The notes under the pieces are model-generated. The model was not told where the DNA came from, did not search any database, and saw only the letters and a list, made by a program, of their open reading frames with translations. DNA of 48,154 nucleotides from the NCBI GenBank assembly GCA_902787125.1, contig CADAEX010000003.1:1-48154 (forward strand), written 5' to 3'. Positions 5,806 through 27,037 of this stretch are shown here, piece after piece (positions within the stretch are counted from its first letter, which is position 1; each line of letters starts with the position of its first letter). The stretch is from an uncultured Spirochaetaceae bacterium. GTDB lineage: Bacteria; Spirochaetota; Spirochaetia; CADAEX01. Position numbers and translations under genes: made by a program.

Positions 5806-5918
5806 TCATCTTCTCAAACTCTCAGGAAAATGCTATACTATAAATGATCTCCTCCGTATGGCAGGAGCATAATATCTGATTGGAAAGCTTAGTGCTGACC
5901 ATAAAGAGAGGAAAAGCA

Positions 5919-6872
5919 ATGAAAAAATTTTTATGTCTCATCCTTTGTGCAGTCATTGCAGTATCTGCATTTGCATCTGGAAAAAAAGAAGAACAGCAGC
6001 TTAAAGAGATAAACATCTCCTATGTCCGCTCACCCTTCAACCTCCCGCTCATCATCATGAAGGAGAAGGGAATGGCTGAAAAAGCTTTCGGGGAGAAGGG
6101 AATCAAGGTCAACTATTATGAGATCACCTCTGGTGCCAAGCAGACCGAGGCTATTGCAGCAGGAAGCCTTGATATCGCATCTGTGATCAACTCTGTATCT
6201 GTAATCCTGGCCAATGCTGCCGGCAACCCTGTTGAGATATTCTCTGGTTTCAGCAAACCGGAGCAGATGTTCACCATCATGACCACCAACCCTGATGTGA
6301 AGACACCTGCCGACCTTAAGGGAAAGAAGGTGGCCGGTCCTAAGGGAACAGTGCTCAACGAGCTTCTGGTGGCTGCTCTTAACAAAGAGGGGATGACCCT
6401 TGATGATATTGAATACATAAATATGGGTATTCCTAACGCTGTGCAGGCAATGCTCTCAGGCAAGGTGGACTGTGCTCTGGCTGCCGCCGCTTCTGTAGTT
6501 GCTGCCGAGAAGAACGGTGCAAGAATCCTGGTTACCTGCGAAGGCTATGTAAGTCCGCTCCTTATCTCAGCCTGCTCAAAGGACTTTGCCGCCAATCATC
6601 CTGCAATGCTCAAGATTTACACCGACACATATAAGGAAGCTGTTAAGTGGATGAATGCCAATATGGAAGAGGCTCTTGTCCTTGGTGCCAAGGTACAGGA
6701 TATCTCTATGGAAGATGCCAGGAAGCTCTTTGCCTGGAGCAACTTTACCGATCATCTGACCGATGCAGACCTTGATGCTCTTGAGTATGATGTTAACTTT
6801 ATGGTTGATACCGGTATGATTGAGAAACACATTGACAAAAAAGACTTTGTCAACAGAATGGCTTTGAAATAA
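5919..6872 (+). CDS. ABC-transporter substrate-binding lipoprotein, NMT1/SsuA/ThiY-like family
   Basis: The start at ATG 5919 (MKKFLCLILCAVIAVSAFASG) gives a signal peptide, with GAGAGGAAAAG upstream as RBS. The body resembles periplasmic NMT1/THI5-like binding proteins. No permease or ATPase gene is adjacent. Confidence 0.7.
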   Translation: MKKFLCLILCAVIAVSAFASGKKEEQQLKEINISYVRSPFNLPLIIMKEKGMAEKAFGEKGIKVNYYEITSGAKQTEAIAAGSLDIASVINSVSVILANAAGNPVEIFSGFSKPEQMFTIMTTNPDVKTPADLKGKKVAGPKGTVLNELLVAALNKEGMTLDDIEYINMGIPNAVQAMLSGKVDCALAAAASVVAAEKNGARILVTCEGYVSPLLISACSKDFAANHPAMLKIYTDTYKEAVKWMNANMEEALVLGAKVQDISMEDARKLFAWSNFTDHLTDADLDALEYDVNFMVDTGMIEKHIDKKDFVNRMALK

Positions 6873-8564: not shown

Positions 8565-9104
8565 GTGAGTCATATCTGCCTTTACCTGTTCTGTGCCTTT
8601 TTTAAAATCTCTTTCTTTACGGTAGGAGGGGGACCTGTCATGCTTGCTGTCATGGATCAGGAGTTCCGGTGCCGCAAGAAGGTTCTTTCCGACAGCGAGA
8701 TGAATGATATTTTAGCCATCATCTATTCCATGCCGGGTGCAATAGGGGTCAATGCGGCCCTCAATATCGGTTATAAACTGGCGGGCAGAAAGGGTAGTGC
8801 CTGTGCCCTTGCCGGGGTCCTGATTCCTCCGGTTGCAATCATCCTTTTCATAACCACATTCATAGAGATGCTTAAGAATTCTCCTCTCACCGGGTACGCT
8901 TTCATCAGCATCCGGGCTGCAGTCACAGTATTCATAATCTATACTGTAGGCAATATGATGAAAAAAACTTTCCGCTGCTGGAAAGACATAGTTATAGGCC
9001 TTTTCGCTTTTTTGGCAGTGGAGTTTGTGGATCTTCCGGCTGTCTATGTGGTGGTTGCCTGCGGTATCTTGGGAATGCTTATGTACCGGGGGAATGAACA
9101 GTGA
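8565..9104 (+). CDS. chromate transporter (CHR) family protein, short-chain half 1
   Basis: 179 aa with a GTG start. It contains FFKISFFTVGGGPVMLAVM and the ...MPGAIGVNAA signature of CHR-family halves. Confidence 0.8.
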   Translation: MSHICLYLFCAFFKISFFTVGGGPVMLAVMDQEFRCRKKVLSDSEMNDILAIIYSMPGAIGVNAALNIGYKLAGRKGSACALAGVLIPPVAIILFITTFIEMLKNSPLTGYAFISIRAAVTVFIIYTVGNMMKKTFRCWKDIVIGLFAFLAVEFVDLPAVYVVVACGILGMLMYRGNEQ

Positions 9105-9517
9105 TTTACCTTATGCTCTACCTGGTGTTTGCAAAGATTGCTTTAGTGGCATTCGGAGGAGGTTATGCCAACCTGCCTATTATACAGTCTGAACTCTTAA
9201 GCCGGGGCTGGTGCACCGTTGAGCAGTTTGCTGACATTGTGGCCATAGCCCAGATGACACCGGGACCAGTAGTCATTAATACCGCAACCTATGTGGGCAA
9301 GACTCTTGCCGGTATCCCGGGTGGAATAATTGCAACCCTTGGTTTCATAACTCCTGCTGTCCTTATCACTGTGGCAATCTACTGTCTGGCAAAAAAACTT
9401 TCTTCTGTGGCATGGATCAGCCATGGAATAAGGGGAATCAGGGCTGGCGTGGCAGGACTTATACTTTGTGCTGTGATCTTTTTTATAGAAAATTCGGTTA
9501 TTATTGGAGGTCTTTAG
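9101..9517 (+). CDS. chromate transporter (CHR) family protein, short-chain half 2
   Basis: 138 aa with a 4-nt overlap with half 1. It contains FAKIALVAFGGGYANLPIIQ and ...AQMTPGPVVINTATYVG. Confidence 0.8.
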   Translation: MIYLMLYLVFAKIALVAFGGGYANLPIIQSELLSRGWCTVEQFADIVAIAQMTPGPVVINTATYVGKTLAGIPGGIIATLGFITPAVLITVAIYCLAKKLSSVAWISHGIRGIRAGVAGLILCAVIFFIENSVIIGGL

Positions 9518-10807
9518 TTGGATAAGTTAGCTGCCGAATTGAATGCGGTAATTGAGGACAAGCCTGTGTACCGGCTTTTGTCGGACCTGGGAAAAAGGAT
9601 GTATTTCCCAAAAGGAATCATCTCCCAGTCTGCAGAGGCCAAAAGAGATGCATATAAATACAATGCCACAATAGGAATGGCTATGGAGGATGGTCAGACT
9701 ATGTTTATTCCTTCCATGCGTAAACTGGTCAATGGTCTTTCTGCCACCGAAATGTTTGCCTATGCTCCTACAGCAGGACTTCCAGAGCTCCGGCAGATAT
9801 GGATGATGGAGATGATCAGGAAGAATCCTTCTCTTGTCAATAAGACTGTCTCCATGCCCATAATCACATCAGGCCTTACCCATGGCCTTTCCATAGTCTC
9901 AGATCTCTTTATCGATGAGAATGATGATGTTATCATCCCCAATATGTTCTGGGGAAACTATAAGCTTATCTTCAATGTGCTCCACAAGGCCAAGGTTGAT
10001 ACCTTTGCTCTCTTTGATGAGAACTACCACTTCAATGCCAATGCCATGGAGGAGACTATAAAGAGAATGGGGGAGAAGGTGGTTATTCTTCTTAACTTCC
10101 CTAACAATCCTACCGGCTATTCTCCCTCCACAGCAGATCAGCATCAGATTGTGCAGGCTCTGTTACGTCAGGCCGACTCAGGCAAGGATATTCTGGTTAT
10201 CTGCGACGACTCTTATTTCGGCCTTTTCTTCGAGAATGATATAGAGCATCAATCTATTTTTGCCTCTTTGTGTGATGCTCATGACAACATAACAGCAGTA
10301 AAGATTGACGGAGCCACCAAGGAGGAACTGGTGTGGGGATTCCGCACAGGCTTCATTACTTATGGCGGCAAAGCAATGGATGAGGCAGCCATATCAGTCA
10401 TTGAAAAGAAAATCATGGGTTCTATCCGCTCCACAGTCTCAACCTGTTCAACTATCTCCCAGAACATAATACTCAAGGGTATGAGAAGCATCACATATCA
10501 TCAGGAGAAAGCAGCTGTGGCAGCCAAGATGAAAGGACGCTATCTGCAGGTGCGCAAAGCTGTGGATTCCATGCCTTCTGATGTGCCTCTTGTGGCACTT
10601 CCGTTCAACTCCGGTTACTTCATGACCTTCGAAGTCAAGAAGATCGGTGCCGAGAATTTGCGTAAATACCTTCTTGAGCACTACGGAATAGGAACTATCT
10701 CCATAGGAGAGAAATATCTTCGTGTAGCTTTCTCCTCTGTTGATATAAACAATATCCACGACCTGTACGGGACGATATTCAAGGCTGCCAGGGAACTGGG
10801 GAGGTGA
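9518..10807 (+). CDS. PLP-dependent aminotransferase, class I/II fold
   Basis: 429 aa. The TTG start immediately follows the upstream stop, with GGAGG 8 nt upstream. It contains [14 protein letters not shown] and [10 protein letters not shown] motifs, with a candidate PLP lysine in IDGATKE. Confidence 0.8.
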
Positions 10808-10811
10808 GAAA

Positions 10812-12110
10812 ATGGATCTTAAAGAAAAATCATTGAAATATCACTGTTTTCCAATCGCAGGAAAAATAGAGGTCATGCCTTCAAAACCATGCAAGACACA
10901 GGATGACCTTTCCTGTGCCTACACACCGGGGGTCGCTTTCCCATGCCTTGAGATCAAGGCGGACCAGAGCCTGGTATCCACCTATACCAGAAGAAAGAAC
11001 CTTGTAGGTGTAATCACCAACGGTACTGCTGTTCTGGGACTTGGAAATATAGGCCCTTATGCGGGAAAACCGGTTATGGAAGGAAAAGGTGTCCTGTTCA
11101 AAAGGTTTGCAGATGTGGATGTGTTTGACCTTGAGCTGGACTGTGCCGACCCTAAGGCCTTCATTGATGCTGTAAAACTTATGGGACCAACCTTCGGGGG
11201 AATCAACCTTGAGGATATCAAGGCTCCGGAATGCTTTGAGATTGAGGACAGCCTCAAGGCTGTCATGGATATCCCTGTATTCCACGATGACCAGCATGGT
11301 ACTGCCATAATAACAGGGGCGGCTCTCCTGAATGCACTGGAGATCATCGGTAAGAAGATAGACCAGATCAAGGTTGTCATAAACGGAGCCGGTGCTGCCG
11401 GCATTGCCTGCGGCAAGTTCTATATTGCCCTGGGTGTAAGGAAAGAGAACATAATCATGTGCGACACAAAGGGAATCATCTACAAGGGCCGTACAGCAGG
11501 CATGAACAAATACAAAGAGTTCTTTGCAACCCCCGCAGAAGGCGGTACTCTGGCAGATGCCCTCAAAGGGGCAGATGTGTTCCTGGGTCTTTCCGGTAAA
11601 GGACTTGTGACCGGTGAGATGCTGAAGACTATGAATGCAGACCCGATTGTCTTTGCCCTTGCCAACCCTGATCCGGAGATAACATATCCTGAGGCAACTG
11701 CTGCCAGGGCCGATGTGATCATGGCTACTGGACGCTCCGATTATCCCAACCAGGTGAACAATGTCATGGGCTTCCCCTTTATATTCCGCGGAGCACTGGA
11801 TGTAGAGGCTTCTGCCATAAACGAGGAGATGAAAGTTGCAGCTTCCCATGCCCTGGCAGACCTTGCAAAGCTTCCTGTGCCTGAGGAGGTGCTTAAGGCA
11901 TACAATGCCAAGAGCCTGGAATTCGGCAGAGACTACATTATCCCTAAGCCGTTTGACCCAAGAGCCTTTGTCCAGGTTTCTGCAGCCGTAGCCGAAGCTG
12001 CTGTAAAAAGCGGAGTAGCTGGAGCTCCATACTCCTCCAAAGAGGCTTATATAAAGGCCTTGGAAGAGAGAATGGCCACATCTATAAGCCGATTCAAGGA
12101 GTCAAAATGA
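10812..12110 (+). CDS. NAD(P)-dependent malic enzyme (short form, no PTA domain)
   Basis: 432 aa. It contains [54 protein letters not shown] and NGAGAAGIA. Confidence 0.9.
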
Positions 12111-13270
12111 GAAAGATTCTTCTCTTAGTTCTTATTCTGATTCTTCCATCTGCACTCTTCGCAGATAAGAAGACCGAGCAGTTTGCAGTGCTTATTGGCT
12201 CCAATAATCTGGCCAAGATTGAAGCTGCAATCAAAGATGGAGCCGACGTGAACGGCGGCAGCGGCGATAAAGCCAGAACACCTCTTATGATAGCAAGCCT
12301 GAATGACGACTCCCTTGAGGTGGTTAAACTCCTTTTAAAGCACGGTGCAAAGGTCAACGAGACCGACACCCATGGTGACACCGCATTGCTTCTTGCCTCT
12401 CAGAGCACCACAAATATTGATATTTTCAACACTCTTATCGAGGCAGGTGCTGATGTTAATGTGCGGAACAGAGACCAGACCACACCTCTCATGGCCGCTG
12501 CCGGCGGAAACTTCAAGTCTGCTGTGACAGAGACCCTCCTTAAGGCTGGTGCCAAGGTGGATGACAAAGACATGGACGGCAGGACGCCCCTTGTCTTTGC
12601 TGTAACATATAACGAGAACCCGAAGGTTACCGAAGCCCTTATCAAGAGCGGGGCAGACTGCAATTCCAAGAACAGGTACGGCCTGCCTGTGATCATGATG
12701 GCAGCCCAGTCCAACAAGAATGCTGATGTCCTCCGTGTCCTTATTGAAGGTGGTGCTGACTATAACTGTGAGATCCAGAACTTCAACCCTATGAGCTATG
12801 CGGCTATCTACAATCCGAATCCTGCAGTGATGGAGCTCCTTCATAAGAAAGGTCTTTCCATAACCGAATATAATGCCAATGGCGTCTCTCCATTCCTCTA
12901 TGCCTGCTTCTACAACTTCTCATCAGACATGATCCAGAAGTTCCTGGAGCTGGGTGCAGATCCTAAGCAGACCGATGTGAACGGAATCTCCGCCCTTATG
13001 TATGCATCCATGCACAACGGAAACCCGGAGATCATCCATATCTTGGTCAAAGCTGGTGCTGATGTGAATGCCAAGGAGAAGAACGGCGGTCTTACACCTC
13101 TTATGCTGGCAGCCCTTCAGAGCGAGCATTCCTCTGTAATCAAGGCTCTCCTGGAGGAAGGGGCAGACATAAATATCAAGTCTGATGCAGGTATGACAGC
13201 CTATGAATATGCGGTCAAGAACGAAAGTCCTATCTCCAAGCTTGATATAGTTCAGGAACTGGAACCGTAA
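12107..13270 (+). CDS. ankyrin-repeat protein with an N-terminal signal peptide
   Basis: 387 aa. The signal peptide is [19 protein letters not shown]. About 10 ANK repeats follow (recurring G.D.N......TPLM.A...). There is an ATGA overlap with the malic enzyme gene. Confidence 0.85.
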
Positions 13271-13355: not shown

Positions 13356-15440
13356 ATGGGATTTACTACTGAACAAATTAAAAACACAGCTATCACTGGG
13401 CATACAGGCACAGGAAAGACTACTCTTCTTGAGCATATTCTTTTTGCAAATGGTGCAATTCCAAAGGCTGAGACTGTAGAGAGTGGAAAGACAGTCAGTG
13501 ACTATACCGAAGAGGAGATCGACAAGAAGATTTCCTTCCATTCCACACTTTCATTTATTGAGAAAAACGGCAAGAAGCTTAATTTTATAGATACTCCGGG
13601 TGCATCCGACTTCGTAGGAGAGGTAATCCTTGGACTCCGGGCCTGCGAGACCGGCATGCTGGTTGTAGGTGCAGACGCCGGTGCTCAGATTGAGACAATC
13701 AAACTGTGGCGCCGTATGGACGGACGTAACATCCCACGGTTCATCTTCATCAACAAGATGGACAAGGACAGAGCTTCCTTCTCAGCAGCTATGGAAGACC
13801 TTAAGAAGAAATTCCATAAAACTTTTGTTCCTGTAGTCATTCCTATGGGCGATGCAAAGGATTTCAAAGGTGTCATCGACCTGCTGAATGAAAAGGCATA
13901 TATGGTTCCAGCCGGCGGCGGAAAAGAGGTTGCAACAGATATTCCTGCTGATATGGCAGATCTGGTTGCTCAGTATAAAGAAGCAATGATCGAGGGTGCT
14001 GCAGAAGGCGACGACGAGATCATGGAAAAGTACCTGGAAAGCGGTGAGCTCAGTCCAGAGGATGTTAAGAAGGCTCTTATCGAAGGTCTCCATGACAATA
14101 AGCTGGCTCCTGTTCTCTGCGGTTCCGGTCTTGCAGGTTCCGGTATCGAGGCACTTGTTAATTTCATCTCTGAGATTTCTCCGTCTCCACTTGGATTCAA
14201 CGATGTCCTCCTGGATGAGGAAGGAAAACAGACACTGGTTCCTATCACACCAGATGGCGATGTCAAGGTATTCACATTCAAGACAAATATTGACCAGTTC
14301 TCCGGTAAGCTCTCATTCTGGAAATGTATCACCGGTAAAGTCACAGCTGATATGGAGCTTATGAACTCCAGAGAGGGAAAGAAGGAGAAAGTCACCAAGC
14401 TGTATACAGCAGTTGGAAAGAAACTGATTGACCTTAACGAGCTTGTTGCAGGTGATATCGGTATCGCATCCAAGATGCCTCTTACTCTGACAAACGACAC
14501 AATGTTCACAGGCGAGCTTAAGGACACATTCATCAAGCTGCGTCTGCCGACACCTACATACGAAGTTTCTGTATCTGCCAACGACAAGAAGAATGAGGAC
14601 AAGCTGGCACAGTTCATGCAGAAGGCTTCCACCGAGGATAATACATTCCGTATCTCCTACAACAAGGAGACAGCTGAGACAATTGTTTCCGGAATGGGCG
14701 AGCTCCAGGTCAACATGATCCTGGACAAGATCCAGAACAACCAGAAGATTGGCATCACCACCAAGATTCCACAGGTTGCATACCGTGAGACAGTTACCAA
14801 GAAAGCTTCCGGCAGCTTCAGACATAAGAAGCAGTCCGGTGGTCATGGCCAGTTTGCAGAGGTTCATTTCGAGATCCAGCCTATCGAGAGAGGCGAGTAT
14901 CTCAGATTCATCAACACCATCAAGGGTGGTGCAGTTTCCAAGGGTTATATCCCTGGAATTGAAAAGGGAATTGCGGAAGGAATGCAGGAAGGTGTTCTTG
15001 CAGGATATCCGGTTGTAGATATAGAAGTAAACCTGTTCGATGGAAAAGAGCATCCTGTCGACTCTTCAGAAATGGCATTCAAGCTTGCAGCCAAGGGCTG
15101 TCTTAAGGATGTCATTGAAAAGGCTTCACCTGTTCTCCTGGAGCCTATCATGAAACTCACAGTATTTGTCGACGATCAGTATCTGGGTGATGTTCTTTCT
15201 GACCTTAGTTCCAAGCGTGGTAGAGTGCTTGGTCAGGACAGCATTGGTGGTGGTATGCAGCAGGTAAATGCAGAAGTTCCGCAGTCTGAGCTTCTGAGAT
15301 ATGCTATTGACCTGCGCTCCCTCACTTCAGGAACCGGCTCCTTCGAGGTTGAATTCGATCACTACAGCCCGATAAACGGCAAGATTGCTGATGCTGTTAT
15401 TGCAGAGGCAAAGGCTAAGAGAGAGGCAGCTCAGGCTTAA
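13356..15440 (+). CDS. elongation factor G paralogue (EF-G2-like translational GTPase)
   Basis: 694 aa. G1 is GHTGTGKTTL, G3 is DTPG and G4 is NKMD. It has the full EF-G domain II-V architecture, including HKKQSGGHGQFA. The G1 motif is of the EF-G2 type rather than the canonical AHIDAGKTT. Confidence 0.88.
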   Translation: MGFTTEQIKNTAITGHTGTGKTTLLEHILFANGAIPKAETVESGKTVSDYTEEEIDKKISFHSTLSFIEKNGKKLNFIDTPGASDFVGEVILGLRACETGMLVVGADAGAQIETIKLWRRMDGRNIPRFIFINKMDKDRASFSAAMEDLKKKFHKTFVPVVIPMGDAKDFKGVIDLLNEKAYMVPAGGGKEVATDIPADMADLVAQYKEAMIEGAAEGDDEIMEKYLESGELSPEDVKKALIEGLHDNKLAPVLCGSGLAGSGIEALVNFISEISPSPLGFNDVLLDEEGKQTLVPITPDGDVKVFTFKTNIDQFSGKLSFWKCITGKVTADMELMNSREGKKEKVTKLYTAVGKKLIDLNELVAGDIGIASKMPLTLTNDTMFTGELKDTFIKLRLPTPTYEVSVSANDKKNEDKLAQFMQKASTEDNTFRISYNKETAETIVSGMGELQVNMILDKIQNNQKIGITTKIPQVAYRETVTKKASGSFRHKKQSGGHGQFAEVHFEIQPIERGEYLRFINTIKGGAVSKGYIPGIEKGIAEGMQEGVLAGYPVVDIEVNLFDGKEHPVDSSEMAFKLAAKGCLKDVIEKASPVLLEPIMKLTVFVDDQYLGDVLSDLSSKRGRVLGQDSIGGGMQQVNAEVPQSELLRYAIDLRSLTSGTGSFEVEFDHYSPINGKIADAVIAEAKAKREAAQA

Positions 15441-15490
15441 ATGTCCCCAAGCCGGCACAGCCGTTTTAAATCTCTTATGTTTCAATTCCG

Positions 15491-15516
15491 ACCCCGGCTT
15501 TTTGCCGGGGTTTTTA
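15491..15516 (+). terminator. rho-independent terminator after the EF-G paralogue
   Basis: Stem ACCCCGGC (15491-15498), loop TTTTT, stem GCCGGGGT (15504-15511), then a T run to 15515. Confidence 0.75.
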
Positions 15517-15532
15517 CTAGGGGAAACAACTT

Positions 15533-16294
15533 ATGAAAAAAATTGCTATCTATGGAAAAGGGGGTATAGGAAAATCCACTGTCACCTCCAATATATCTGC
15601 CGCTCTTGCAATAAGCGGCTATAAGGTCATGCAGATAGGATGCGACCCAAAGGCTGATTCCACAATAAATCTGATGCATGGAAAACAGCTTGAGCCTGTC
15701 CTTAACTACATGCGGGATCATGATTCCAACCCCAAGATTGAAGATATTATCCACACCGGTTTCGGCGGGGTGATGTGTATGGAGACAGGAGGCCCCACAC
15801 CTGGTCTGGGCTGTGCAGGAAGGGGAATAATAGCCACTTTCCAGCTTATGGATGAGCTTAATGTGTTCGATACCCTTAAGCCTGATGTTGTCCTCTACGA
15901 TGTCTTGGGCGATGTGGTATGCGGCGGTTTTGCCGCCCCTATCAGGGAAGGCTATGCCCAGGATATATATATTGTGACCTCCGGGGAGAAAATGTCTCTC
16001 TTTGCTGCCAACAATATACGTACTGCCGTAAAGAACTTTGAGGACAGGGGTTACGCCCGGGTGCGGGGAATTATTTTCAATTCCCGTGGCCTTAAGGGAG
16101 AGGATGAGAAAGTGCAGGCCTTTGCCGACAGCATAGGGGTTCCTGTCATAGGCCATCTTCCGAGGTCCCAGGAGATAATGGATTTTGAGGATAAGGGAAT
16201 GACTGTTGTGGAGGGAAACAGAGACCTTCCTATAAGCAGGGAGTTCCTTTCCATTGCAGATAAAATAATGAAGTGTAAGAGCGATGAAAGCTGA
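15533..16294 (+). CDS. nitrogenase iron protein-like ATPase (NifH/BchL/CfbC superfamily), reductase component of a nitrogenase-like enzyme
   Basis: 253 aa. P-loop GKGGIGKST (residues 8-16), switch I DPKADST (38-44), switch II DVLGDVVCGGF (123-133). The cluster cysteines are C94 (GLGCAGRG) and C130. An AGGGGA RBS lies upstream. Confidence 0.92.
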   Translation: MKKIAIYGKGGIGKSTVTSNISAALAISGYKVMQIGCDPKADSTINLMHGKQLEPVLNYMRDHDSNPKIEDIIHTGFGGVMCMETGGPTPGLGCAGRGIIATFQLMDELNVFDTLKPDVVLYDVLGDVVCGGFAAPIREGYAQDIYIVTSGEKMSLFAANNIRTAVKNFEDRGYARVRGIIFNSRGLKGEDEKVQAFADSIGVPVIGHLPRSQEIMDFEDKGMTVVEGNRDLPISREFLSIADKIMKCKSDES

Positions 16295-17594
16295 GTTCAG
16301 GACTATAGGACAACTGGCATCGGAAAAAAGAGAGAATAAATCGGTACCTGTATTCGGCGGCTGCTGGCTGCACTACAATGGGCCTGGAAGCTCCGGCTTC
16401 GGGGTAAAGCGGACAGCCATGCTGCTGCCCGAAAGTGCAATGCTCATGGTGGGTCCCATGGGGTGCAGCCGCTCAGGCACAGTGGTGGCAGAAAAGTATG
16501 GCTTTGCCCACCGTATGTTCTATCTTAACCTGGATGACAGGAGTATATCCCTGGGTACATATCTTAAGAGAATTCCGGAGGCAGTCCAGTATATAAAAGA
16601 CCTTGGACAGTTCAAGGCTGTCCTTATATGCATGACCTGTCTTGATGCTCTCCTGGGAACAGATCTGGCAGGGTTGGGCAGAAAAATAAGCGCTCAGGTG
16701 GGGATACCTGTGACCACCACCTTTATGGATCCTATTGTGAGGGATGGAAACTATGGCCCTATGGTGCAGGTCCGGCAGGCTATAACTGACTGTTTCGAGG
16801 CCCAGGGCAACAATACTGGAGGCGATACATCAGTAAACCTTCTTGGAACCTTTGCTCCCCTTGAGAAGGAGAGCGAGCTTCTTAACCTTCTTGGAAAAGC
16901 AGGTATAAAAGAGATAAAGACAGTCGCCGGGTGCAGCAGTTTTGATGAGCTGCAGAAAATGGGAGGTTCCCGGGCCAACATAATAGTGCATCCACAGGCT
17001 GCTGCCTGCGGTGCAGACCTGGAAAAACGCCTTGGAATGCCCTATATAAAGCTTTACACATCATATATACCAGACGTAATAGAAGAAAATTATAAAAAAC
17101 TTGCTGCTTTCCTTGATACTGATATCAGCTGCGGAAAAGAGAAGATAGCAGCAGAAGAAAGAATCAAGGAATTTGCACTGAAGCATAAGGGCAGGAGGAT
17201 TGCAGTAGGAGAGGCGGTCTGTGGTAATCCCTTCGACATAGCCCTTATGCTCATAGAGGCAGGAATAGAGGTCCCCTTTGTCTTCCGTGATATGATTCAC
17301 CCGGAGGACTGGGATCTTATTGCAGTTCTGAATAAAGCAGCACCAGGGCTCAAGGTCTTTTCCGGAGTTCATCCTTCCACTGCCGCATGTCCATCCACCT
17401 TGCCCCAGGCAGACCTTATGCTGGGCCTGGATGCAGGCTATTACAATCAGGAAGCAATAAGCGCTGCATGGCCTTTTGACAGGACATTCTACGGTTTTGA
17501 CGGCATAAATGGACTTCTTGAAGTCATGGATAACGCTTTCTCCAATCCTAAGGGGCACAGAGAGCAGATGAAAGGAACATATCTTACGGTGTAG
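16284..17594 (+). CDS. nitrogenase component-1-type oxidoreductase, NifD/NifE/BchN-like subunit
   Basis: 436 aa with an 11-nt overlap with the upstream gene. Cysteines: C27 (FGGCW), C61 (VGPMGC), C119 (MTCLDALLGTDL). The C-terminal YGFDG block resembles NifD HGFDG. The FeMo-co ligand positions are not conserved. Confidence 0.8.
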   Translation: MKAEFRTIGQLASEKRENKSVPVFGGCWLHYNGPGSSGFGVKRTAMLLPESAMLMVGPMGCSRSGTVVAEKYGFAHRMFYLNLDDRSISLGTYLKRIPEAVQYIKDLGQFKAVLICMTCLDALLGTDLAGLGRKISAQVGIPVTTTFMDPIVRDGNYGPMVQVRQAITDCFEAQGNNTGGDTSVNLLGTFAPLEKESELLNLLGKAGIKEIKTVAGCSSFDELQKMGGSRANIIVHPQAAACGADLEKRLGMPYIKLYTSYIPDVIEENYKKLAAFLDTDISCGKEKIAAEERIKEFALKHKGRRIAVGEAVCGNPFDIALMLIEAGIEVPFVFRDMIHPEDWDLIAVLNKAAPGLKVFSGVHPSTAACPSTLPQADLMLGLDAGYYNQEAISAAWPFDRTFYGFDGINGLLEVMDNAFSNPKGHREQMKGTYLTV

Positions 17595-17602
17595 GGGGGA
17601 GC

Positions 17603-18547
17603 ATGAAAGGATTCTTCAGATATTTGGCACCTTTTGCTCCGGACTATTCAGGGGCAGTATCCGCATTATATGCCGAAGGTGGTCTTGTAGTACTTTGCGA
17701 TCCAGGTGGGTGCTCAGGCAATGTGGCAGGTTATGATGAGCCCCGGTTCTATGGCGATAAAGCCTGTTTCTACAGTGCTGCCATAAGAGAGATGGACACT
17801 ATTTTCGGCAGGGATGACAAGCTGAAGAAAAAGATATGCGCCGCAGCCTCCTTTGGAGAATATAAGTTCGTGGCTCTGGTGGGCACTCCTGCAGTATCTG
17901 TGATCGGCACCGACCTTACCGCTGCCGCAAAAGCTGTGGAGAAGGAGACAGGTATACCTGCATTCAGCGTAAATACATCGGGGATGGAGAATTATTCCTT
18001 CGGCGAGGCTAAGGCAATTCTGGCCTTGGTAAAGAAATTCCTGCCTGAATATTCTGAGAAAATATCCATATTCGGGGCTACTCCCCTTAATAGGGCTTTT
18101 GATGATGATCTTGTCTCCATTGCTTCGGAATTATCTTCAGAAGAGACACTATGCTTCTCTCCGGGTGCTTTGGAGGCTTGCCGCCTTATCAAGGAAAAGT
18201 CCGGAATTCCGTACAGGCTCAGTTATCCTGAGAGCCCTTCCCTGTTAAAAGCTGCAGAGGAGGCCGGCAGTGCAAAACGGGTACTTATTGTGCATCAGCA
18301 GGGAGTAGGGAACACACTGCGTAATATAATAAGGCGGACTTCTGATGCTGATATCACTGTAGGCAGCTTCTTCCTGCAGGATGCTGAATTTGCAGAGAAA
18401 CAGGACCTTTTCTTCCAGGGAGAGGATGAGCTTATTGCCGCATCAAAAGAGGCTGATCTGATCTATGCAGACCCTATGTATAGAAGGGCATTGGCATCTG
18501 ACGCAAGGTTTGTTCCATTGGTTCACTGCGCTCTGTCTGGTTGCTAA
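17603..18547 (+). CDS. nitrogenase component-1-type oxidoreductase, short NifK/NifN/BchB-like subunit
   Basis: 314 aa. A GGGGGGAG RBS lies in the 8-nt gap. It contains LCDPGGC (C32, C37), REMDTIFGRDDKL (compare tE.d.VFGG) and GTPAVSVIGTDL (compare TC....IGDD, with Cys replaced by Pro). Confidence 0.72.
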   Translation: MKGFFRYLAPFAPDYSGAVSALYAEGGLVVLCDPGGCSGNVAGYDEPRFYGDKACFYSAAIREMDTIFGRDDKLKKKICAAASFGEYKFVALVGTPAVSVIGTDLTAAAKAVEKETGIPAFSVNTSGMENYSFGEAKAILALVKKFLPEYSEKISIFGATPLNRAFDDDLVSIASELSSEETLCFSPGALEACRLIKEKSGIPYRLSYPESPSLLKAAEEAGSAKRVLIVHQQGVGNTLRNIIRRTSDADITVGSFFLQDAEFAEKQDLFFQGEDELIAASKEADLIYADPMYRRALASDARFVPLVHCALSGC

Positions 18548-18569: not shown

Positions 18570-19010
18570 ATGTATATGGTTAAAAAAGAATCTGCTGCAA
18601 GAGAGCTTATGCTGTTCTATCCCCGCCTTTTCAAGGGGCTTTTTATAATGCTCCTCACTGCAGTTATGGGGATTGCTCTTGCTGCTGCAGTAGTCTATCC
18701 ACTCTGGAGCACAGCAGTTCATTCCAAAGTGGCCTACAACTGGTTCATCCTTATCTGTGTGGTCCTGGCTCTGACATTAATTCCTGCTGTACGGATCCGA
18801 AGCCTTAAGAGGGCAGGTGTAAGCACAGGAGAGATCATCAGACATCATATATTGCCAGTTCTTGTCCGGATAATCTATTTCTTCCTTCTGTTTATGACAG
18901 CTCTCCTTGCCTGGGTATTTTTTGCCAATAATTATATTCTGGGTGGAGTCATCTCAATTATTTTTATCCTGCTTATTACAGGAATTTTTAAAATATATTT
19001 GAAAAAATAA
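18570..19010 (+). CDS. small integral membrane protein (about 4 TM), hypothetical
   Basis: 146 aa with four hydrophobic segments. It lies 22 nt after the NifK-like gene and upstream of the shared terminator at 19104. There is no clear SD, so the start could be ATG 18570 or 18576. Confidence 0.55.
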   Translation: MYMVKKESAARELMLFYPRLFKGLFIMLLTAVMGIALAAAVVYPLWSTAVHSKVAYNWFILICVVLALTLIPAVRIRSLKRAGVSTGEIIRHHILPVLVRIIYFFLLFMTALLAWVFFANNYILGGVISIIFILLITGIFKIYLKK

Positions 19011-19103: not shown

Positions 19104-19134
19104 AGGCTGATTGAAAAATCAGCCTCTTTTTTTT
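19104..19134 (+). terminator. rho-independent terminator, probable end of the nitrogenase-like operon
   Basis: Stem AGGCTGATT (19104-19112), loop GAAA, stem AATCAGCCT (19117-19125), then C plus T8 (19127-19134). Confidence 0.8.
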
Positions 19135-19153
19135 CCCCACCTATATTAAACAG

Positions 19154-21923: not shown

Positions 21924-22541
21924 ATGATTAATACAGTAACTGAAATTGATGATATGGTGGCACTTATCCAGATCAACCCTGGTATCAGGATTTATTCCAC
22001 CGGCGGCACATACACCGCAATCAAGGGCTATTTAGGCTCTGCTGCCGACAAGAACCTTATCCAGGTTTCCGACTACACAAAGCAGCCTGAGATGCAGGGA
22101 GGTCTTGTAAAGACACTGGATTTCAAGATCTATCTGGGAATCCTTTCCGAGACCTACAACGATGCCCACAAGAAGGACATTGCCCGGACCAATGCCACAA
22201 TCTTTGATATGATAGTTGTAAACCTCTATCCATTCGAGAAGACAGTTGCAAAGGCAGAGTCCACATCAGAGAATGCCCGCGGAAACATCGATATCGGCGG
22301 CCCATGCATGCTCCGTGCTTCTGCAAAGAACTTCCTGAGAGTGGCTTCTGTCACAGATCCTGCAGACTATCCTGTTCTCCTTAAGAACCTTAAGGCCCAG
22401 AAGGGTGCCCTCAGCTTTGCGCAGCGGTTTGAGCTTGCCAAGAAGACATTCAGCACCACAGCAAAATATGACACAGCTATCAGTGCATATCTTGCAGGTC
22501 TTGCACCGGCTGATGCCGCCAAGGTATATAATCTTCACTAA
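21924..22541 (+). CDS. purH: IMP cyclohydrolase-like MGS domain protein (N-terminal half of PurH, encoded separately)
   Basis: 205 aa. It contains STGGT, VKTL, VVNLYPFEKT, NIDIGGPCMLRASAKN and DPADY, which are the IMPCH-domain blocks of PurH. It ends at TAA 22539-22541. Confidence 0.78.
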   Translation: MINTVTEIDDMVALIQINPGIRIYSTGGTYTAIKGYLGSAADKNLIQVSDYTKQPEMQGGLVKTLDFKIYLGILSETYNDAHKKDIARTNATIFDMIVVNLYPFEKTVAKAESTSENARGNIDIGGPCMLRASAKNFLRVASVTDPADYPVLLKNLKAQKGALSFAQRFELAKKTFSTTAKYDTAISAYLAGLAPADAAKVYNLH

Positions 22542-22552
22542 GGAGTCCGGCT

Positions 22553-23806
22553 ATGGCAGAAAATCTTAAGGATATGTACAAAAACATCAACAGAGACTCT
22601 TTCCCTCAGTTCATGGATATAAGCTTCAGGAACTCTGACAGCGACAGGCAGACCCTGTTCTACGAGAAAGTTCAGTGGGATATCGGTGGCGAGAAGCTGG
22701 GACTCCGTTACGGTGAGAACCCAGACCAGCCGGCTGCAATGTACAAGCTTATAAATGGCAATCTTGCCATCGGTGGAGTGGAGACTGTGCTCCAGGGCCG
22801 CTATCTGGCCTCTGATGTAGAGCTGCTTCAGTCAGGAAAGCACCCGGGAAAGATCAATATTACAGATGTGGACAACGGACTCAATATCCTCCGCTTCTTT
22901 TCCGAGACCCCTTGCAGTGTCATAATCAAGCATAACAACCCGTCTGGTGTTGCAAAGGGTGAGACACTGGCAGAGGCATTCCATAAATCCCTTATGGCAG
23001 ACCGCATTGCCGCATTCGGCGGTGCTGTAATCCTGAACAGAGAAGTGGATCTGGAGACTGCAGAGCAGGTGACAGAAGGCTATGTCGAGGTAGTTGCGGC
23101 ACCTGAATTCTCTCCGAAGGCTTTTGAGCTTTTCCAGAGCAAGAAGAATCTCCGTGTCATGCGGATCAAGAACATTGATAAGCTTCAGGATTTTGCCTAT
23201 TCCAGGTTCATGGACTTCAAATCTATCCTGGACGGTGGTGTCATCGCTCAGTGGTCATACCTTCCAAAGGCCAGGAAAAAGGAGGACTTCCTCCCGGCTG
23301 TATGCGAATACAAAGGAAAAGAATACAGGGTTAACCGGCAGCCTACCGACAAGGAGTTCGAGGATATTATCTTCGGCTGGCTGGTGGAGAGCGGTGTTAC
23401 CAGTAATTCTGTAATCTATGTTAAGGACGGAGTCACTGTTGGAATAGGAACCGGCGAGCAGGACCGGGTAGGTGTTGCCGAGATTGCCCGGGATAAGGCA
23501 TATAAGAAGATGTGCGACCGGATCTGCTGGGACCTCTACGAAAAGTCCTGGTATGAGCTTACAGATCCCGAGAAGCGTGCTTCTATTGAAGCTGTTGTAA
23601 AGGATGAGCACGGCGGACTTAAGGGAAGCATCATGGTTTCCGATGCATTCTTCCCGTTCAGGGACGGAATCGATATCGGCCTTAAAGAGGGAGTTACAGC
23701 TGTTGTACAGCCTGGAGGGTCCCTCCGTGACTTCGAATCCATAGAAGCCTGCAATGAATTCAATGCAGCCATGGTCTACACAGGCCAGAGGAGTTTCCGG
23801 CACTGA
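22553..23806 (+). CDS. purH: AICAR formyltransferase domain protein (C-terminal half of PurH, encoded separately)
   Basis: 417 aa with its own AAGGAG RBS. It contains LRYGENPDQPAA, IIKHNNPSGVA, GIGTGEQDRV, VSDAFFPFRDGI, VVQPGGSLRD and YTGQRSFRH. Confidence 0.85.
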   Translation: MAENLKDMYKNINRDSFPQFMDISFRNSDSDRQTLFYEKVQWDIGGEKLGLRYGENPDQPAAMYKLINGNLAIGGVETVLQGRYLASDVELLQSGKHPGKINITDVDNGLNILRFFSETPCSVIIKHNNPSGVAKGETLAEAFHKSLMADRIAAFGGAVILNREVDLETAEQVTEGYVEVVAAPEFSPKAFELFQSKKNLRVMRIKNIDKLQDFAYSRFMDFKSILDGGVIAQWSYLPKARKKEDFLPAVCEYKGKEYRVNRQPTDKEFEDIIFGWLVESGVTSNSVIYVKDGVTVGIGTGEQDRVGVAEIARDKAYKKMCDRICWDLYEKSWYELTDPEKRASIEAVVKDEHGGLKGSIMVSDAFFPFRDGIDIGLKEGVTAVVQPGGSLRDFESIEACNEFNAAMVYTGQRSFRH

Positions 23807-24989: not shown

Positions 24990-25751
24990 ATGAACCAGAG
25001 GAATACCGACACCCTTATTGTGGCCTCCCTGAATCTGAACTTGAATAAAGCCACCCTGATAAGCCTGCCGCGGGATCTTTTCTACAAGCGTACCAAGATC
25101 AACAGCATTTACCGCCGTTTCGGGGCAGATACCCTTAAGAACACAGTCTCTGAAATCACCGGACTCAGGATTGATAAATATGTGATGGTTGATATGTATG
25201 CCTTTGCCGAACTTATTAATGTGCTTGGTGGAATTGATGTGGAGCTTACCGAGCCTCTTGTGGATCCTACCTATAGGGTTAGAGATGAGAACGGCAAGTG
25301 GTCCACCCTCTATTATCCGGCAGGAGTGCATCATGTCAACGGCGTTCAGGCGCTGCGTATTGCCAGAGCCCGGCATTATACTCCGGTATTCTCCCGGGAT
25401 TTGCGGCAGCAGCAGATTCTCAAGGCTGTCAAGGATAAGCTTCAGTCCATTGGACTTTCCGATATAAACAGGCTGGGCAGAATCATAAAGCTGGGGTTCA
25501 GATATGTGGAGACTGATATATCCTGGCTTGAGGCTTTCAGCCTTTACCGCAGCTGTCAGGATATAACTATCATCCAGGCCGTGCTAAGCACAAACAATGT
25601 ACTTTGTGCCACTTACACCAATCTGCTTGCTACAGGATTGGCCGAGGATCAGGTGGACCAGGAGTTTGACAAAGGTGCCTGGATTGTGATTCCCCTTGAC
25701 AACGACTGGAAAGTTGTTAAAAAATTCATTGAGGAAAAGTTGGCTGAATGA
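24990..25751 (+). CDS. LytR-CpsA-Psr (LCP) family domain, as called from its first ATG (N-terminally incomplete)
   Basis: The LCP signature YTILICG-MNQRNTDTLIVASLNLN...LISLPRD starts upstream of the ATG. The same frame is open back to 24897 with no canonical start codon. Confidence 0.75.
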   Translation: MNQRNTDTLIVASLNLNLNKATLISLPRDLFYKRTKINSIYRRFGADTLKNTVSEITGLRIDKYVMVDMYAFAELINVLGGIDVELTEPLVDPTYRVRDENGKWSTLYYPAGVHHVNGVQALRIARARHYTPVFSRDLRQQQILKAVKDKLQSIGLSDINRLGRIIKLGFRYVETDISWLEAFSLYRSCQDITIIQAVLSTNNVLCATYTNLLATGLAEDQVDQEFDKGAWIVIPLDNDWKVVKKFIEEKLAE

Positions 25752-27037
25752 AAAAGTATTTTCTTGAGACATATGGCTGTCAGATGAACAAGGCAGAGTC
25801 CGATTCCCTTGAGCTTATACTCCAGAAAAGGGGCTGGGAGAGCTGCAGTTCCGACAGCCAGGCTGATCTCATTATCATAAACACATGCTCTGTACGTCAG
25901 ACTGCAGAAGACCGTATCTGGGGCCGTATAGGCTATTTCAAGAAACTTAAGGAGAGCCATGACTTCAAGCTGGTTATAATAGGCTGCATGGCCCAGCGGA
26001 TAAAGGAAGAGCTCTACACCACCTGCAGGGGAACTGTGGATCTGGTTCTGGGAACTCTGGAGAAGAACAATATACTTGAGTATCTGGAAGGACTGCCGGA
26101 AAAGGATGAAGGCACCTATACTTTCCAGGAATACCATTCCGATGGCAGGAGCTTCAAGACATTTGTCCCGATCATGCATGGCTGCAACAACTTCTGCTCC
26201 TACTGCATAGTTCCGTATGTACGGGGCCGTGAGGTATCCAGGTCTGCTGAAGATATACTCCATGAGATTGAGTTCCTTGAGCAGCATAATGTGAGGGAGA
26301 TAACCCTTTTAGGACAGAATGTCAACTCATACCGGGGCACATATAAGGGGAGTGAGATATCATTTCCGGAGCTTTTAGACCTTATCTGCAGCCACATAAG
26401 CTCCATAGGGTGGGTCCGTTTTCTCTCTTCCCATCCCAAGGATTTCAGCTCGAAGCTGATTGACACCATAGCGGCAAATCCTCAGGTCTGCCGTCATATA
26501 CACCTCCCTGTCCAGCATGGCAGCAACCGTATTCTGGAGCTTATGAACCGGCGTTACACCAAGGAGCACTATCTGGATATAGTGTCGGAGATCAAGGATA
26601 AGATTCCCGGAGTCTCCCTTACCACCGATATTCTGATCGGATTCCCGGGGGAAACTGAGGCGGATCTGGATGCTACTTTGGATCTTATGAGACAGGTGCG
26701 CTACATAGATGCCTACACTTACTATTATAACCCCCGTGAAGGTACCAAGGCCTGCACCATGGCCGACAGCCTGCCCCTCGAGACAAAGCTTAAGAGGCTT
26801 GAGAAGGTCATAGCCCTTCAGCACCGTATCAGCGCAGAGGAGAAGGAGAAGAAGGTGGGCCAGGTGAAGCGTGTTCTGGTGGAATCTGTCTCCAAGAAGG
26901 ACAAAACCGAGATGCTGGGACGCACTGAGGGGGATGAGATGGTTGTTTTTCCCGAAAAATATGATACAATAGGTAAGTTCATTGATGTTAAGCTTCTTTC
27001 CTGCAACGGAAATACATACAAAGGAGTCAGAGTATGA
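25748..27037 (+). CDS. miaB: tRNA (N6-isopentenyl adenosine(37)-C2)-methylthiotransferase
   Basis: 429 aa. It has the UPF0004 N-domain (ETYGCQMN, INTCSVR), the radical-SAM motif CNNFCSYCIVP and a C-terminal TRAM domain. There is an ATGA overlap with the upstream gene. Confidence 0.92.
   Translation: MKKYFLETYGCQMNKAESDSLELILQKRGWESCSSDSQADLIIINTCSVRQTAEDRIWGRIGYFKKLKESHDFKLVIIGCMAQRIKEELYTTCRGTVDLVLGTLEKNNILEYLEGLPEKDEGTYTFQEYHSDGRSFKTFVPIMHGCNNFCSYCIVPYVRGREVSRSAEDILHEIEFLEQHNVREITLLGQNVNSYRGTYKGSEISFPELLDLICSHISSIGWVRFLSSHPKDFSSKLIDTIAANPQVCRHIHLPVQHGSNRILELMNRRYTKEHYLDIVSEIKDKIPGVSLTTDILIGFPGETEADLDATLDLMRQVRYIDAYTYYYNPREGTKACTMADSLPLETKLKRLEKVIALQHRISAEEKEKKVGQVKRVLVESVSKKDKTEMLGRTEGDEMVVFPEKYDTIGKFIDVKLLSCNGNTYKGVRV

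Follow-up and report, generated by a model that had tools for sequence, protein, structure and literature searches.

Three co-directional genes on contig CADAEX010000003.1, from an uncultured Spirochaetaceae bacterium, encode a nitrogenase-like system, which we analysed together with the whole 48,154-nucleotide stretch of DNA around it (hereafter the window). The first gene (15533-16294, + strand) encodes a NifH-like Fe protein of 253 aa (H), the second (16284-17594, +) a D-like component-1 subunit of 436 aa (D) and the third (17603-18547, +) a shortened, K-like component-1 subunit of 314 aa (K); H and D overlap by 11 nt, and D and K are separated by a gap of 8 nt. The coordinates, lengths, overlap and gap given in a first-pass annotation match the open reading frame (ORF) list exactly, and every motif that it had pointed out is found in the translations: GKGGIGKST, DPKADST, DVLGDVVCGGF, C94 and C130 in H; VGPMGC, MTCLDALLGTDL, YGFDG, IVHPQAA and SAAWPFDRTFYGFDG in D; and CDPGGC, REMDTIFGRDDKL and VIGTDL in K. 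When compared with orthologues in two related metagenome-assembled genomes (MAGs), the ratio of nonsynonymous to synonymous substitution rates (dN/dS) was 0.02-0.04 for H, 0.09-0.11 for D and about 0.07 for K. Because dN/dS is this low, H, D and K are functional genes under strong purifying selection, neither chance ORFs nor a relic.

The Fe protein belongs to the Pfam family Fer4_NifH (1.5e-91) and carries the P-loop, switch I, switch II and the cluster cysteines C94 and C130, which together with C37 and C82 are invariant across the two clades of relatives, A and B1, that are described below. Among PDB sequences it scored 238 bits with NifH, 227 with MarH and 159 with BchL, and among NCBIfam models 314 bits with CfbC (cut-off 402), 311 with nifH (394) and 210 with BchL (345). 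Judged by these scores and motifs, it is a canonical Fe protein that resembles NifH and CfbC far more than BchL.

D and K both match the Pfam family Oxidored_nitro (7e-32 and 1.5e-11, respectively), K only in its N-terminal half. AlphaFold (AF2) models built from family alignments were of high confidence, with predicted local distance difference test (pLDDT) values of 89.9 for D and 87.7 for K, and when these models were compared with the PDB by Foldseek the matches were solely component-1 chains of the nitrogenase superfamily. The D model gave template-modelling (TM) scores of 0.62-0.71 with no preference among NifK, NifN, NifD, BchB and MarD, and the top matches of the K model were the NifN chains 9onk_B, 9ian_C and 9i0f_B. 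These models and matches show the component-1 fold for the D-K pair. Many natural D-K fusions of 771-1002 aa occur among the relatives, which argues that D and K act as one unit.

To map possible metal ligands, a profile of 72 family sequences was aligned by hhalign with Desulfovibrio vulgaris NifD and NifE. Three of the six P-cluster cysteines are kept, namely NifD Cys88 (D C61), NifD Cys154 (D C119) and NifK Cys95 (K C37); D has no cysteine at the equivalent of NifD Cys62, and NifK Cys153 corresponds to an invariant proline, P96. The family features of D are NGPGxxGFGVKR, which occupies the site of the first P-cluster cysteine of NifD, the invariant C61 and the pair C116-x-x-C119, besides the C-terminal tail of clade A (HREQMKGTYLTV in the window, clade motif HREQMxGxYLTV). 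K is marked by the N-terminal PFAPDYSGA, by DPGGC37 and by P96 at the NifK Cys153 position. The window proteins carry all of the clade-A D and K motifs, as indicated by the alignments, the conservation table and neighbour-joining (NJ) trees.

As for the iron-molybdenum cofactor (FeMo-co), the ligand Cys275 stands in the hhalign alignment opposite a gap or D His235, in a variable column, and the His442 region faces AAW396 in D; by phmmer against the PDB, LVQCHRS of Clostridium pasteurianum NifD was aligned with IIV-HPQAA in D. The first-pass annotation had described both Cys275 and His442 as apparently missing, and this is borne out by phmmer with C. pasteurianum NifD and by hhalign with D. vulgaris NifD and NifE. 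Throughout the family neither of these FeMo-co ligands is present, nor are three of the six P-cluster cysteines, and by the evidence of these alignments there is no FeMo-co or L-cluster site in D-K. The more general statement that the system lacks cofactor ligands stands for the FeMo-co Cys and His but not overall, since D C61, C116 and C119 and K C37 are invariant. Because clade A has further specific cysteines (D C27, C170 and C217; K C32), which may leave room for a larger cluster, we do not insist on a plain cubane.

Nitrogenase-like (NFL) enzymes are rare, ATP-driven reductases of very low potential, and each clade that has been assigned a role (DPOR, Cfb, Mar and isethionate reductase, Isr) gave new chemistry. 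In the available passages of a July 2026 article in Chemical Reviews (PMC13474568), Group IV-A (Nfa) is listed as proposed, IV-B (Cfb) and IV-C (Mar) as characterised, IV-D and IV-E as unknown, IV-F (Isr) as proposed, V (DPOR/COR) as characterised and VI (the Elusimicrobia type) as unknown. The same passages regard the uncharacterised NFL clades as the main challenge of the field, gene context having hinted only at sulfur or tetrapyrrole metabolism.

None of the curated NCBIfam models for Nif, Bch and Cfb proteins attains its cut-off with H, D or K of the window. Among the component-1 models the scores for D and K were 59 bits against a cut-off of 505 for nifE (TIGR01283), 38 against 654 for nifD, 42 against 425 for BchY, 30 against 490 for BchB and 29 against 268 for CfbD, the last on K only. 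The family profile scored 76 bits with NifE and 46 bits with MarD (9fmg_A) in the PDB, and no entry or model specific for this family was found in the PDB (to April 2026) or in NCBIfam (June 2026). Membership of nitrogenase proper, NifEN, CfbCD, DPOR/COR and Mar was rejected. For nitrogenase proper (Groups I-III) the Fe protein is of the right kind, but the P-cluster, the FeMo-co ligands, the scores and the nifB/E/N context are not. NifEN was set aside on the absent first NifE cysteine, the unconserved Cys250 column and the low TIGR01283 score, and CfbCD on the CfbC and CfbD scores given above, on the presence of two distinct component-1 genes and on the absence of cfb genes. All Bch models lie far below cut-off and the window has no bch genes, which argues against DPOR/COR. 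Against Mar, the NifD Cys and His that bind FeMo-co are absent here, the window has no NifB-like gene and 9fmg_A scores less than NifE with the family profile; the MarD L-cluster ligands were compared by description, Cys270 and His429 being placed in that same region in the available passages of the review (PMC13474568). The sub-cut-off models, the missing ligands and the MarD score of 46 bits are in agreement with the earlier statement that the system is not DPOR/COR, Cfb, Mar or a true nitrogenase, and the core of that annotation, a nitrogenase-like ATP-driven reductase whose substrate is unassigned, holds.

Among these systems, NifEN resembles the triad in several respects. The top profile match of D is NifE and the top fold matches of K are NifN; NifEN has an interface [4Fe-4S] cluster held by three cysteines of one subunit and one of the other (NifE Cys37, Cys62 and Cys124, and NifN Cys44) and is served by a NifH-type ATPase; and relatives of the present family are embedded in metallocofactor-assembly operons. 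However, NifE Cys37 is missing here, apparently replaced by D C116, the unconserved NifE Cys250 column is occupied by His235 in the window D, no NifB or NifX is present, and the linked assembly genes are Hyd and Hyp rather than Nif. Mar (MarBHDK, Group IV-C, PDB 9fmg) is likewise an ATP-dependent NFL enzyme, for sulfur salvage, its loci are associated with transporters of sulfur compounds, and MarH is near NifH in similarity to the window Fe protein (227 versus 238 bits), but neither MarB nor NifB is found here and MarD reaches only 46 bits with the family profile. DPOR (BchLNB/ChlLNB) also combines an Fe protein with a heterotetramer and uses one asymmetric [4Fe-4S] cluster, to which N contributes three ligands and B one, with no complex cofactor, and K C37 lies at or beside the position of BchB Asp36; it differs in that tetrapyrrole context is lacking here and that K has 314 aa against about 520 aa. 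The NifH of Group VI, the Elusimicrobia type, is a sibling of the BchL group, whereas the window Fe protein is NifH/CfbC-like (311-314 bits versus 210 for BchL), and the gene contexts differ, that of Group VI being of a tetrapyrrole type and rich in radical S-adenosylmethionine genes.

Relatives of D were found at 80-98% identity in rumen metagenomes, followed by a graded series down to 33%, and a scan with one genome per GTDB species confirmed relatives in at least 559 species. The closest among the matches listed are ruminant-gut MAGs named 'Spirochaetia bacterium' (81-85% identity), so that the window most likely comes from a rumen spirochaete, and the distant ones include Blautia, Anaerobutyricum hallii, Coprococcus comes, Megasphaera, Mogibacterium, Eubacterium, Olsenella, Pyramidobacter, Mailhella-like Desulfovibrionaceae and others. 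A K profile searched against 1.84 billion representatives recovered 729 clusters at 50% identity (E <= 1e-30). In rough NJ trees, in which Nif, Bch and clade C sequences (see below) were the only references, clade A, which contains the window, is sister to a large Firmicutes clade, B1, and A and B1 together stand apart from a branch formed by B2 and clade C and from NifD/E, NifK/N and BchN/B. By these trees and the shared motifs, the triad belongs to clade A of a large unnamed NFL family.

Gene neighbourhoods were compared by calling and clustering ORFs in 80 genome loci, plus 15 loci from metagenomes and annotated plasmids (95 in total); clade A comprises 18 of these loci and the intermediate L085/L086 (20 altogether), and clade B1 73. 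Outside the spirochaetes, H-D-K is followed in clade A by genes for an ATP-binding cassette (ABC) permease, an ATPase and an NMT1/SsuA-family binding protein. This importer set, or the binding protein alone, adjoins H-D-K in 13 of the 20 clade-A loci, only the binding protein being present in Pyramidobacter and in L085/L086; the full set or the binding protein was seen in L005, L006, L081, L083-L089, L093-L095 and the P0073 contig. In about six clade-A lineages, with differing gene orders, the operon also holds HydE, HydF and TM1266, which pass their curated models (HydE 499-522 bits against 255 for TIGR03956, HydF 559 against 326, TM1266 120 against 61). In L088, L089 and L093 the radical S-adenosylmethionine (SAM) gene, HydE, lies immediately upstream of H, and an SsuCBA-like importer lies downstream. 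No Hyp genes were detected in the clade-A loci, and a screen of all 95 loci by motif, length and BLAST similarity, not by a hidden Markov model, found no radical-SAM ORF resembling HydG.

In clade B1, represented by the Firmicutes and Actinobacteria loci L008-L080, the genes after H-D-K are hypF-hypC-hypD-hypE and a member of the TM1266 family, as in L024:5077-13379 (Anaerobutyricum hallii DSM 3353) and L016 (Blautia luti). HypF is present in 71 of the 73 loci, HypC and HypD in 62 each, HypE in 60 and TM1266 in 55, and the curated-model scores (hypF 741 bits, hypD 384, hypE 426, TM1266 115) identify all of them as bona fide. Some B1 loci have hydE-hydF-TM1266 directly upstream as well, and the conserved neighbour-gene clusters of the clade include no hypA, hypB or hydrogenase structural gene. 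Many clade-B loci hold a second, divergent triad, B2 (e.g. L008:14919-17044, L013:15006-17083, L062:3614-7082 and L070:3442-6985), whose Fe protein is about 50% identical to that of the window and whose D is 20-25% identical. The layout of two triads with Hyp genes recalls NifDK with NifEN.

The associations in these neighbourhoods are not random. The operon linkage to HydE, HydF and TM1266 in clade A and to HypFCDE and TM1266 in B1 is repeated and real, and it implies, so far as gene content can tell, that the active site depends on Fe-CO/CN cofactor machinery for either its assembly or its function. In the literature searched, that of PubMed Central (PMC), no description was found of a nitrogenase-like system tied to Hyp or Hyd maturases, and the available passages of the review contain no mention of HydE or HydF and no relevant mention of 'hyp' (PMC13474568).

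In the spirochaetes the triads stand alone amid housekeeping genes, not only in the window but also in L001-L004 and in the unrelated horse-gut locus L007. The description of the system as an orphan is thus correct for the spirochaetes, but elsewhere clade A is linked to importer or Hyd genes and the sister clade to Hyp genes. The 48-kb window contains no nifB/E/N/V/X, nifI, mod, bch or cfb genes, and in this the gene-by-gene annotation agrees with the earlier claim that nif accessory, molybdate-transport and tetrapyrrole genes are absent.

In a further NFL group, 'clade C', genes for a NifH-like protein and two component-1 proteins are embedded among those of a FecCD-type iron ABC transporter, as seen in L090:10599-18255 (Treponema saccharophilum plasmid pTS1) and L096:4907-13038 (Sporomusa termitida plasmid pSPTER); the Sporomusa cluster adds TonB-dependent siderophore receptors and an alpha/beta hydrolase. 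This context suggests a function connected with the uptake of siderophores, haem or corrinoids. These clade C systems beside iron ABC transporters were the top matches of a plasmid search, which returned no Isr locus.

By context, the closest characterised analogue of the triad is isethionate reductase, IsrBHDK with SsuCAB (Group IV-F). Isr was described in Rhodobacter capsulatus by Morimoto et al. (2024), where IsrBHDK requires the SsuCAB importer, and has been reported in Spirochaetota, Bacillota and gut bacteria (PMC11423573). It has no FeMo-co ligands and a predicted [4Fe-4S] cluster (PMC11423573; available passages of PMC13474568), IsrD having only the equivalent of NifD Cys88 and IsrK those of NifK Cys70, Cys95 and Cys153, according to those passages and to Fig. 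S3 of PMC11423573. The first-pass annotation was right that the characterised NFL enzymes it listed do not match, but it had omitted Isr, the closest by context.

Our comparison with Isr used published descriptions and motif tables rather than full Isr sequences. Both are two-component NFL systems in which a NifH-like Fe protein is combined with a D-K heteromer that has no FeMo-co or L-cluster ligands, and both occur in anaerobes including Bacillota and Spirochaetota. Isr is genetically coupled to an SsuABC-type sulfonate importer and an SsuABC-like importer stands beside the clade-A relatives, several of which also have a radical-SAM gene just upstream of H. That partner, however, is HydE (with HydF and TM1266), not a BciD-like IsrB, and the sister clade B1 is tied to HypFCDE, not to a transporter. 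Moreover, the published list of Isr orthologues and the present family share no genera (PMC11423573). No radical-SAM gene adjoins the window triad, the sole radical-SAM ORF of the window (25748-27037) having the UPF0004/TRAM, MiaB-like domain set.

The importer of clade A has a possible counterpart in the window, where an orphan, lipoprotein-like substrate-binding protein of the SsuA/NMT1 family (5880-6872, +; Pfam NMT1 and NMT1_2) is encoded 8.6 kb upstream of the triad. This protein scored 163.3 bits with the NCBIfam model SsuA_fam, for which the cut-off is 163.5, and is 31-36% identical (E ~1e-60) to the binding proteins beside clade-A H-D-K operons; the window has no permease or ATPase gene to go with it. 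From these similarities we infer that it may be a partner of the triad, though unlinked. The surroundings had been described as housekeeping, and this was largely correct except that this binding protein had been overlooked.

We propose, with somewhat less than even confidence, that the triad is an ATP-driven, low-potential NFL reductase acting on an imported small anion, and that by analogy with Isr its reaction would most plausibly be the cleavage of a sulfonate C-S bond for sulfur acquisition. An imported anion is our guess because the SsuABC-like importer is the most constant partner of clade A and because Isr and Mar provide a precedent. As its motifs and the analogous enzymes suggest, a NifH-like homodimer with a bridging [4Fe-4S] cluster (C94, C130) would bind and hydrolyse MgATP and dock on the D-K heteromer. 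Electrons would then pass to an Fe-S cluster at the D/K interface, for which conservation and alignment point to D C61, C116 and C119 and K C37 as putative, non-canonical ligands, and this interface cluster would in turn reduce the bound substrate. The substrate would be the imported small anion, isethionate-reductase-like cleavage of a sulfonate C-S bond being the likeliest case. In the window spirochaete the partner genes would be unlinked, the only one nearby being that of the SsuA-like binding protein 8.6 kb upstream.

Several observations weigh against this proposal. The window has no Hyd or Hyp gene, transporter permease or transporter ATPase, and only the SsuA-like binding protein represents the SsuCAB-type importer that adjoins 13 of the 20 clade-A loci, so that the function would be carried over from relatives that are 40-60% identical. 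Unrelated genes lie between the binding-protein gene and the triad, its product shares only 31-36% identity with the operon-linked proteins, and the binding-protein scores are at or under the cut-off of the SsuA subfamily. The NitT/TauT transporter family also carries nitrate, cyanate and bicarbonate. In Isr one cysteine comes from D and three from K, whereas here D provides three (C61, C116, C119) and K one or two. Finally, the sister clade B1 has no transporter, and an importer-only model therefore fails to explain the Hyd and Hyp links.

These links are addressed by a rather unlikely alternative in which clades A and B1 form a new class of NFL metalloproteins with an iron-carbonyl/cyanide active site or product, the window triad using unlinked maturases. 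In one version, the system could be an NFL enzyme with a hydrogenase-type organometallic cofactor, installed by HydE and HydF in clade A and by HypFCDE in B1. In the other, it could be an ATP-driven reductive module in a HydG-independent pathway to the 2Fe subcluster or in an anaerobic route to CO and CN ligands.

A related explanation, which we consider unlikely although it is the main rival, is that D-K is a NifEN-like scaffold or maturase that, with the Fe protein, would use ATP to drive a reduction needed for making a hydrogenase-type Fe-CO/CN cofactor, for example on a HydG-independent route to the 2Fe subcluster of [FeFe]-hydrogenase, or to supply CO or CN by reduction of CO2, cyanate or thiocyanate. 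In its favour, the family profile matches NifE best (76 bits) and the K fold matches NifN chains best, clade A has HydE, HydF and TM1266 in the operon, nearly all B1 loci have HypFCDE and TM1266 (and some of them hydE-hydF-TM1266 upstream), HydG was not detected in the 95 loci, and the second triad of the clade-B loci recalls NifDK with NifEN. Rasche and Seefeldt are said to have observed in 1997 that nitrogenase reduces cyanate to CO and thiocyanate to HCN, which we also counted for this explanation. A maturase would account better than a reductase of an imported substrate for the links to Hyd, Hyp and TM1266, for operons without HydG and for the NifE/NifN-like top matches. On the other hand, the most constant partner of clade A is an importer, which is unusual for a maturase and fits it less well, unless the cargo is a compound from which a ligand is made (cyanate, thiocyanate or bicarbonate, for example). 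Besides, the spirochaete triads (window, L001-L004, L007) are without Hyd genes within 8-30 kb, and the similarity to NifE and NifN is weak and unspecific, Foldseek scores being alike for all component-1 chains.

It is very unlikely that the triad is itself an Isr (Group IV-F) orthologue that has lost its linked isrB and ssuCAB. The gene order of L088, L089 and L093, with a radical-SAM gene upstream of H and an SsuCBA-like importer downstream, would agree with such an origin, as would the presence of Isr in Spirochaetota, Bacillota and gut bacteria (PMC11423573) and its own lack of FeMo-co ligands, which the available passages of the review describe. The cysteines are nevertheless differently distributed, K having only the Cys95 equivalent, with P96 for Cys153, and D having C61, C116 and C119; the linked radical-SAM protein is HydE by its curated model, not a BciD-like IsrB; and the genera of the family are absent from the published list of Isr orthologues.

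That the triad modifies tetrapyrroles, in the manner of DPOR/COR, CfbCD or the proposed Group VI systems, is more improbable still. The simple Fe-S architecture without FeMo-co ligands would suit such an enzyme, the proposed interface cluster with three cysteines from one subunit and one from the other resembles the NB-cluster of DPOR, and CfbC is nominally the top NCBIfam match of the Fe protein. All Bch and Cfb models nevertheless remain far under their cut-offs, no tetrapyrrole genes were found in the window or in the conserved neighbour clusters and Pfam gene lists of the relatives, and the NifH of Group VI is a sibling of BchL whereas the window Fe protein is NifH/CfbC-like.

A true or alternative (Nfa-like) nitrogenase, or its decaying relic, is barely credible in spite of the nifHDK-like gene order and the canonical Fe protein, since the whole family lacks both FeMo-co ligands and three of six P-cluster cysteines, the window has no nifB, nifE or nifN, K has only 314 aa, and dN/dS values of 0.02-0.11 and ORFs intact in many genomes speak against decay.

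Around the triad, a terminator-like GC hairpin followed by a U-run (15490-15515, +) was found in the sequence between the NifH-like gene and the gene upstream, which encodes an EF-G paralogue. The hairpin ends about 17 nt short of the NifH-like start codon, leaving no promoter space after it, and the RNA fold around it has a predicted energy of -31.7 kcal/mol (z = -3.5). In the predicted fold of 15441-15535, UCCCC at 15444-15448 is paired with GGGGA of the ribosome-binding site. The modelled hairpin may reflect control by read-through or attenuation, and an Rfam scan of the window gave no match, so that no known riboswitch family was found upstream of H-D-K. Downstream, a second, strong terminator-like hairpin with a 9-bp stem and then a T-rich run (19104-19135, +; CTTTTTTTTC) precedes secA. 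Between it and the triad lies a gene for a predicted 146-aa multi-pass membrane protein (18570-19010, +), which starts 22 nt past K and is possibly co-transcribed; the transcription unit would then be H-D-K, possibly with the 146-aa ORF, closed by the hairpin at 19104. This ORF has no match in Pfam or NCBIfam, and its homologues were found only in the close spirochaete MAGs L001, L002 and L004, being inverted in L001 (~10543-10896, -); as a conserved partner of the family it was rejected because it is confined to close relatives and inverted in one of them.

The EF-G paralogue directly upstream of the operon (13356-15440, +; 694 aa) has all five EF-G domains, and the same arrangement, EF-G paralogue before the triad, is also seen in the spirochaete MAGs L001, L003 and L004. 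Ankyrin-repeat proteins, which are unusual in bacteria, are encoded near the NFL operon both in the window (12107-13270, +; 387 aa) and in a Mailhella-like locus (L094:13983-15218, -; 411 aa); the ankyrin protein was rejected as a partner, the similarity being at the level of the repeats only and probably a coincidence. The rest of the 48 kb is housekeeping in character, with genes for an aminoacyl-tRNA synthetase, YebC, RuvCAB, QueA, malic enzyme, the ankyrin protein, the EF-G paralogue, SecA, parts of PurH, Mfd, TsaD and others. The PurH-like function is spread over two adjacent ORFs (21924-22541 and 22553-23806, +), the first with an MGS-like domain and the start of AICARFT/IMPCHase and the second with the remaining AICARFT/IMPCHase; the gene is either split or frameshifted. 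Two adjacent half-size genes for ChrA-like chromate transporters are found at 8565-9104 and 9101-9517 (+).

As far as could be checked, what is new here is a large uncharacterised NFL lineage with a distinctive ligand pattern and an association with hydrogenase-cofactor maturases. Its members are abundant among anaerobes of the human, ruminant and other guts, for example in Blautia, Anaerobutyricum, Coprococcus, Megasphaera, Mogibacterium and spirochaetes of the rumen. If they are Isr-like sulfonate reductases, a widespread gut route for the use of organosulfur compounds would be added. If the link of the family to Fe-CO/CN cofactors is functional, it would connect the worlds of nitrogenase and hydrogenase maturation and would bear on the source of CO ligands in anaerobes and on the existence of HydG-independent H-cluster assembly.

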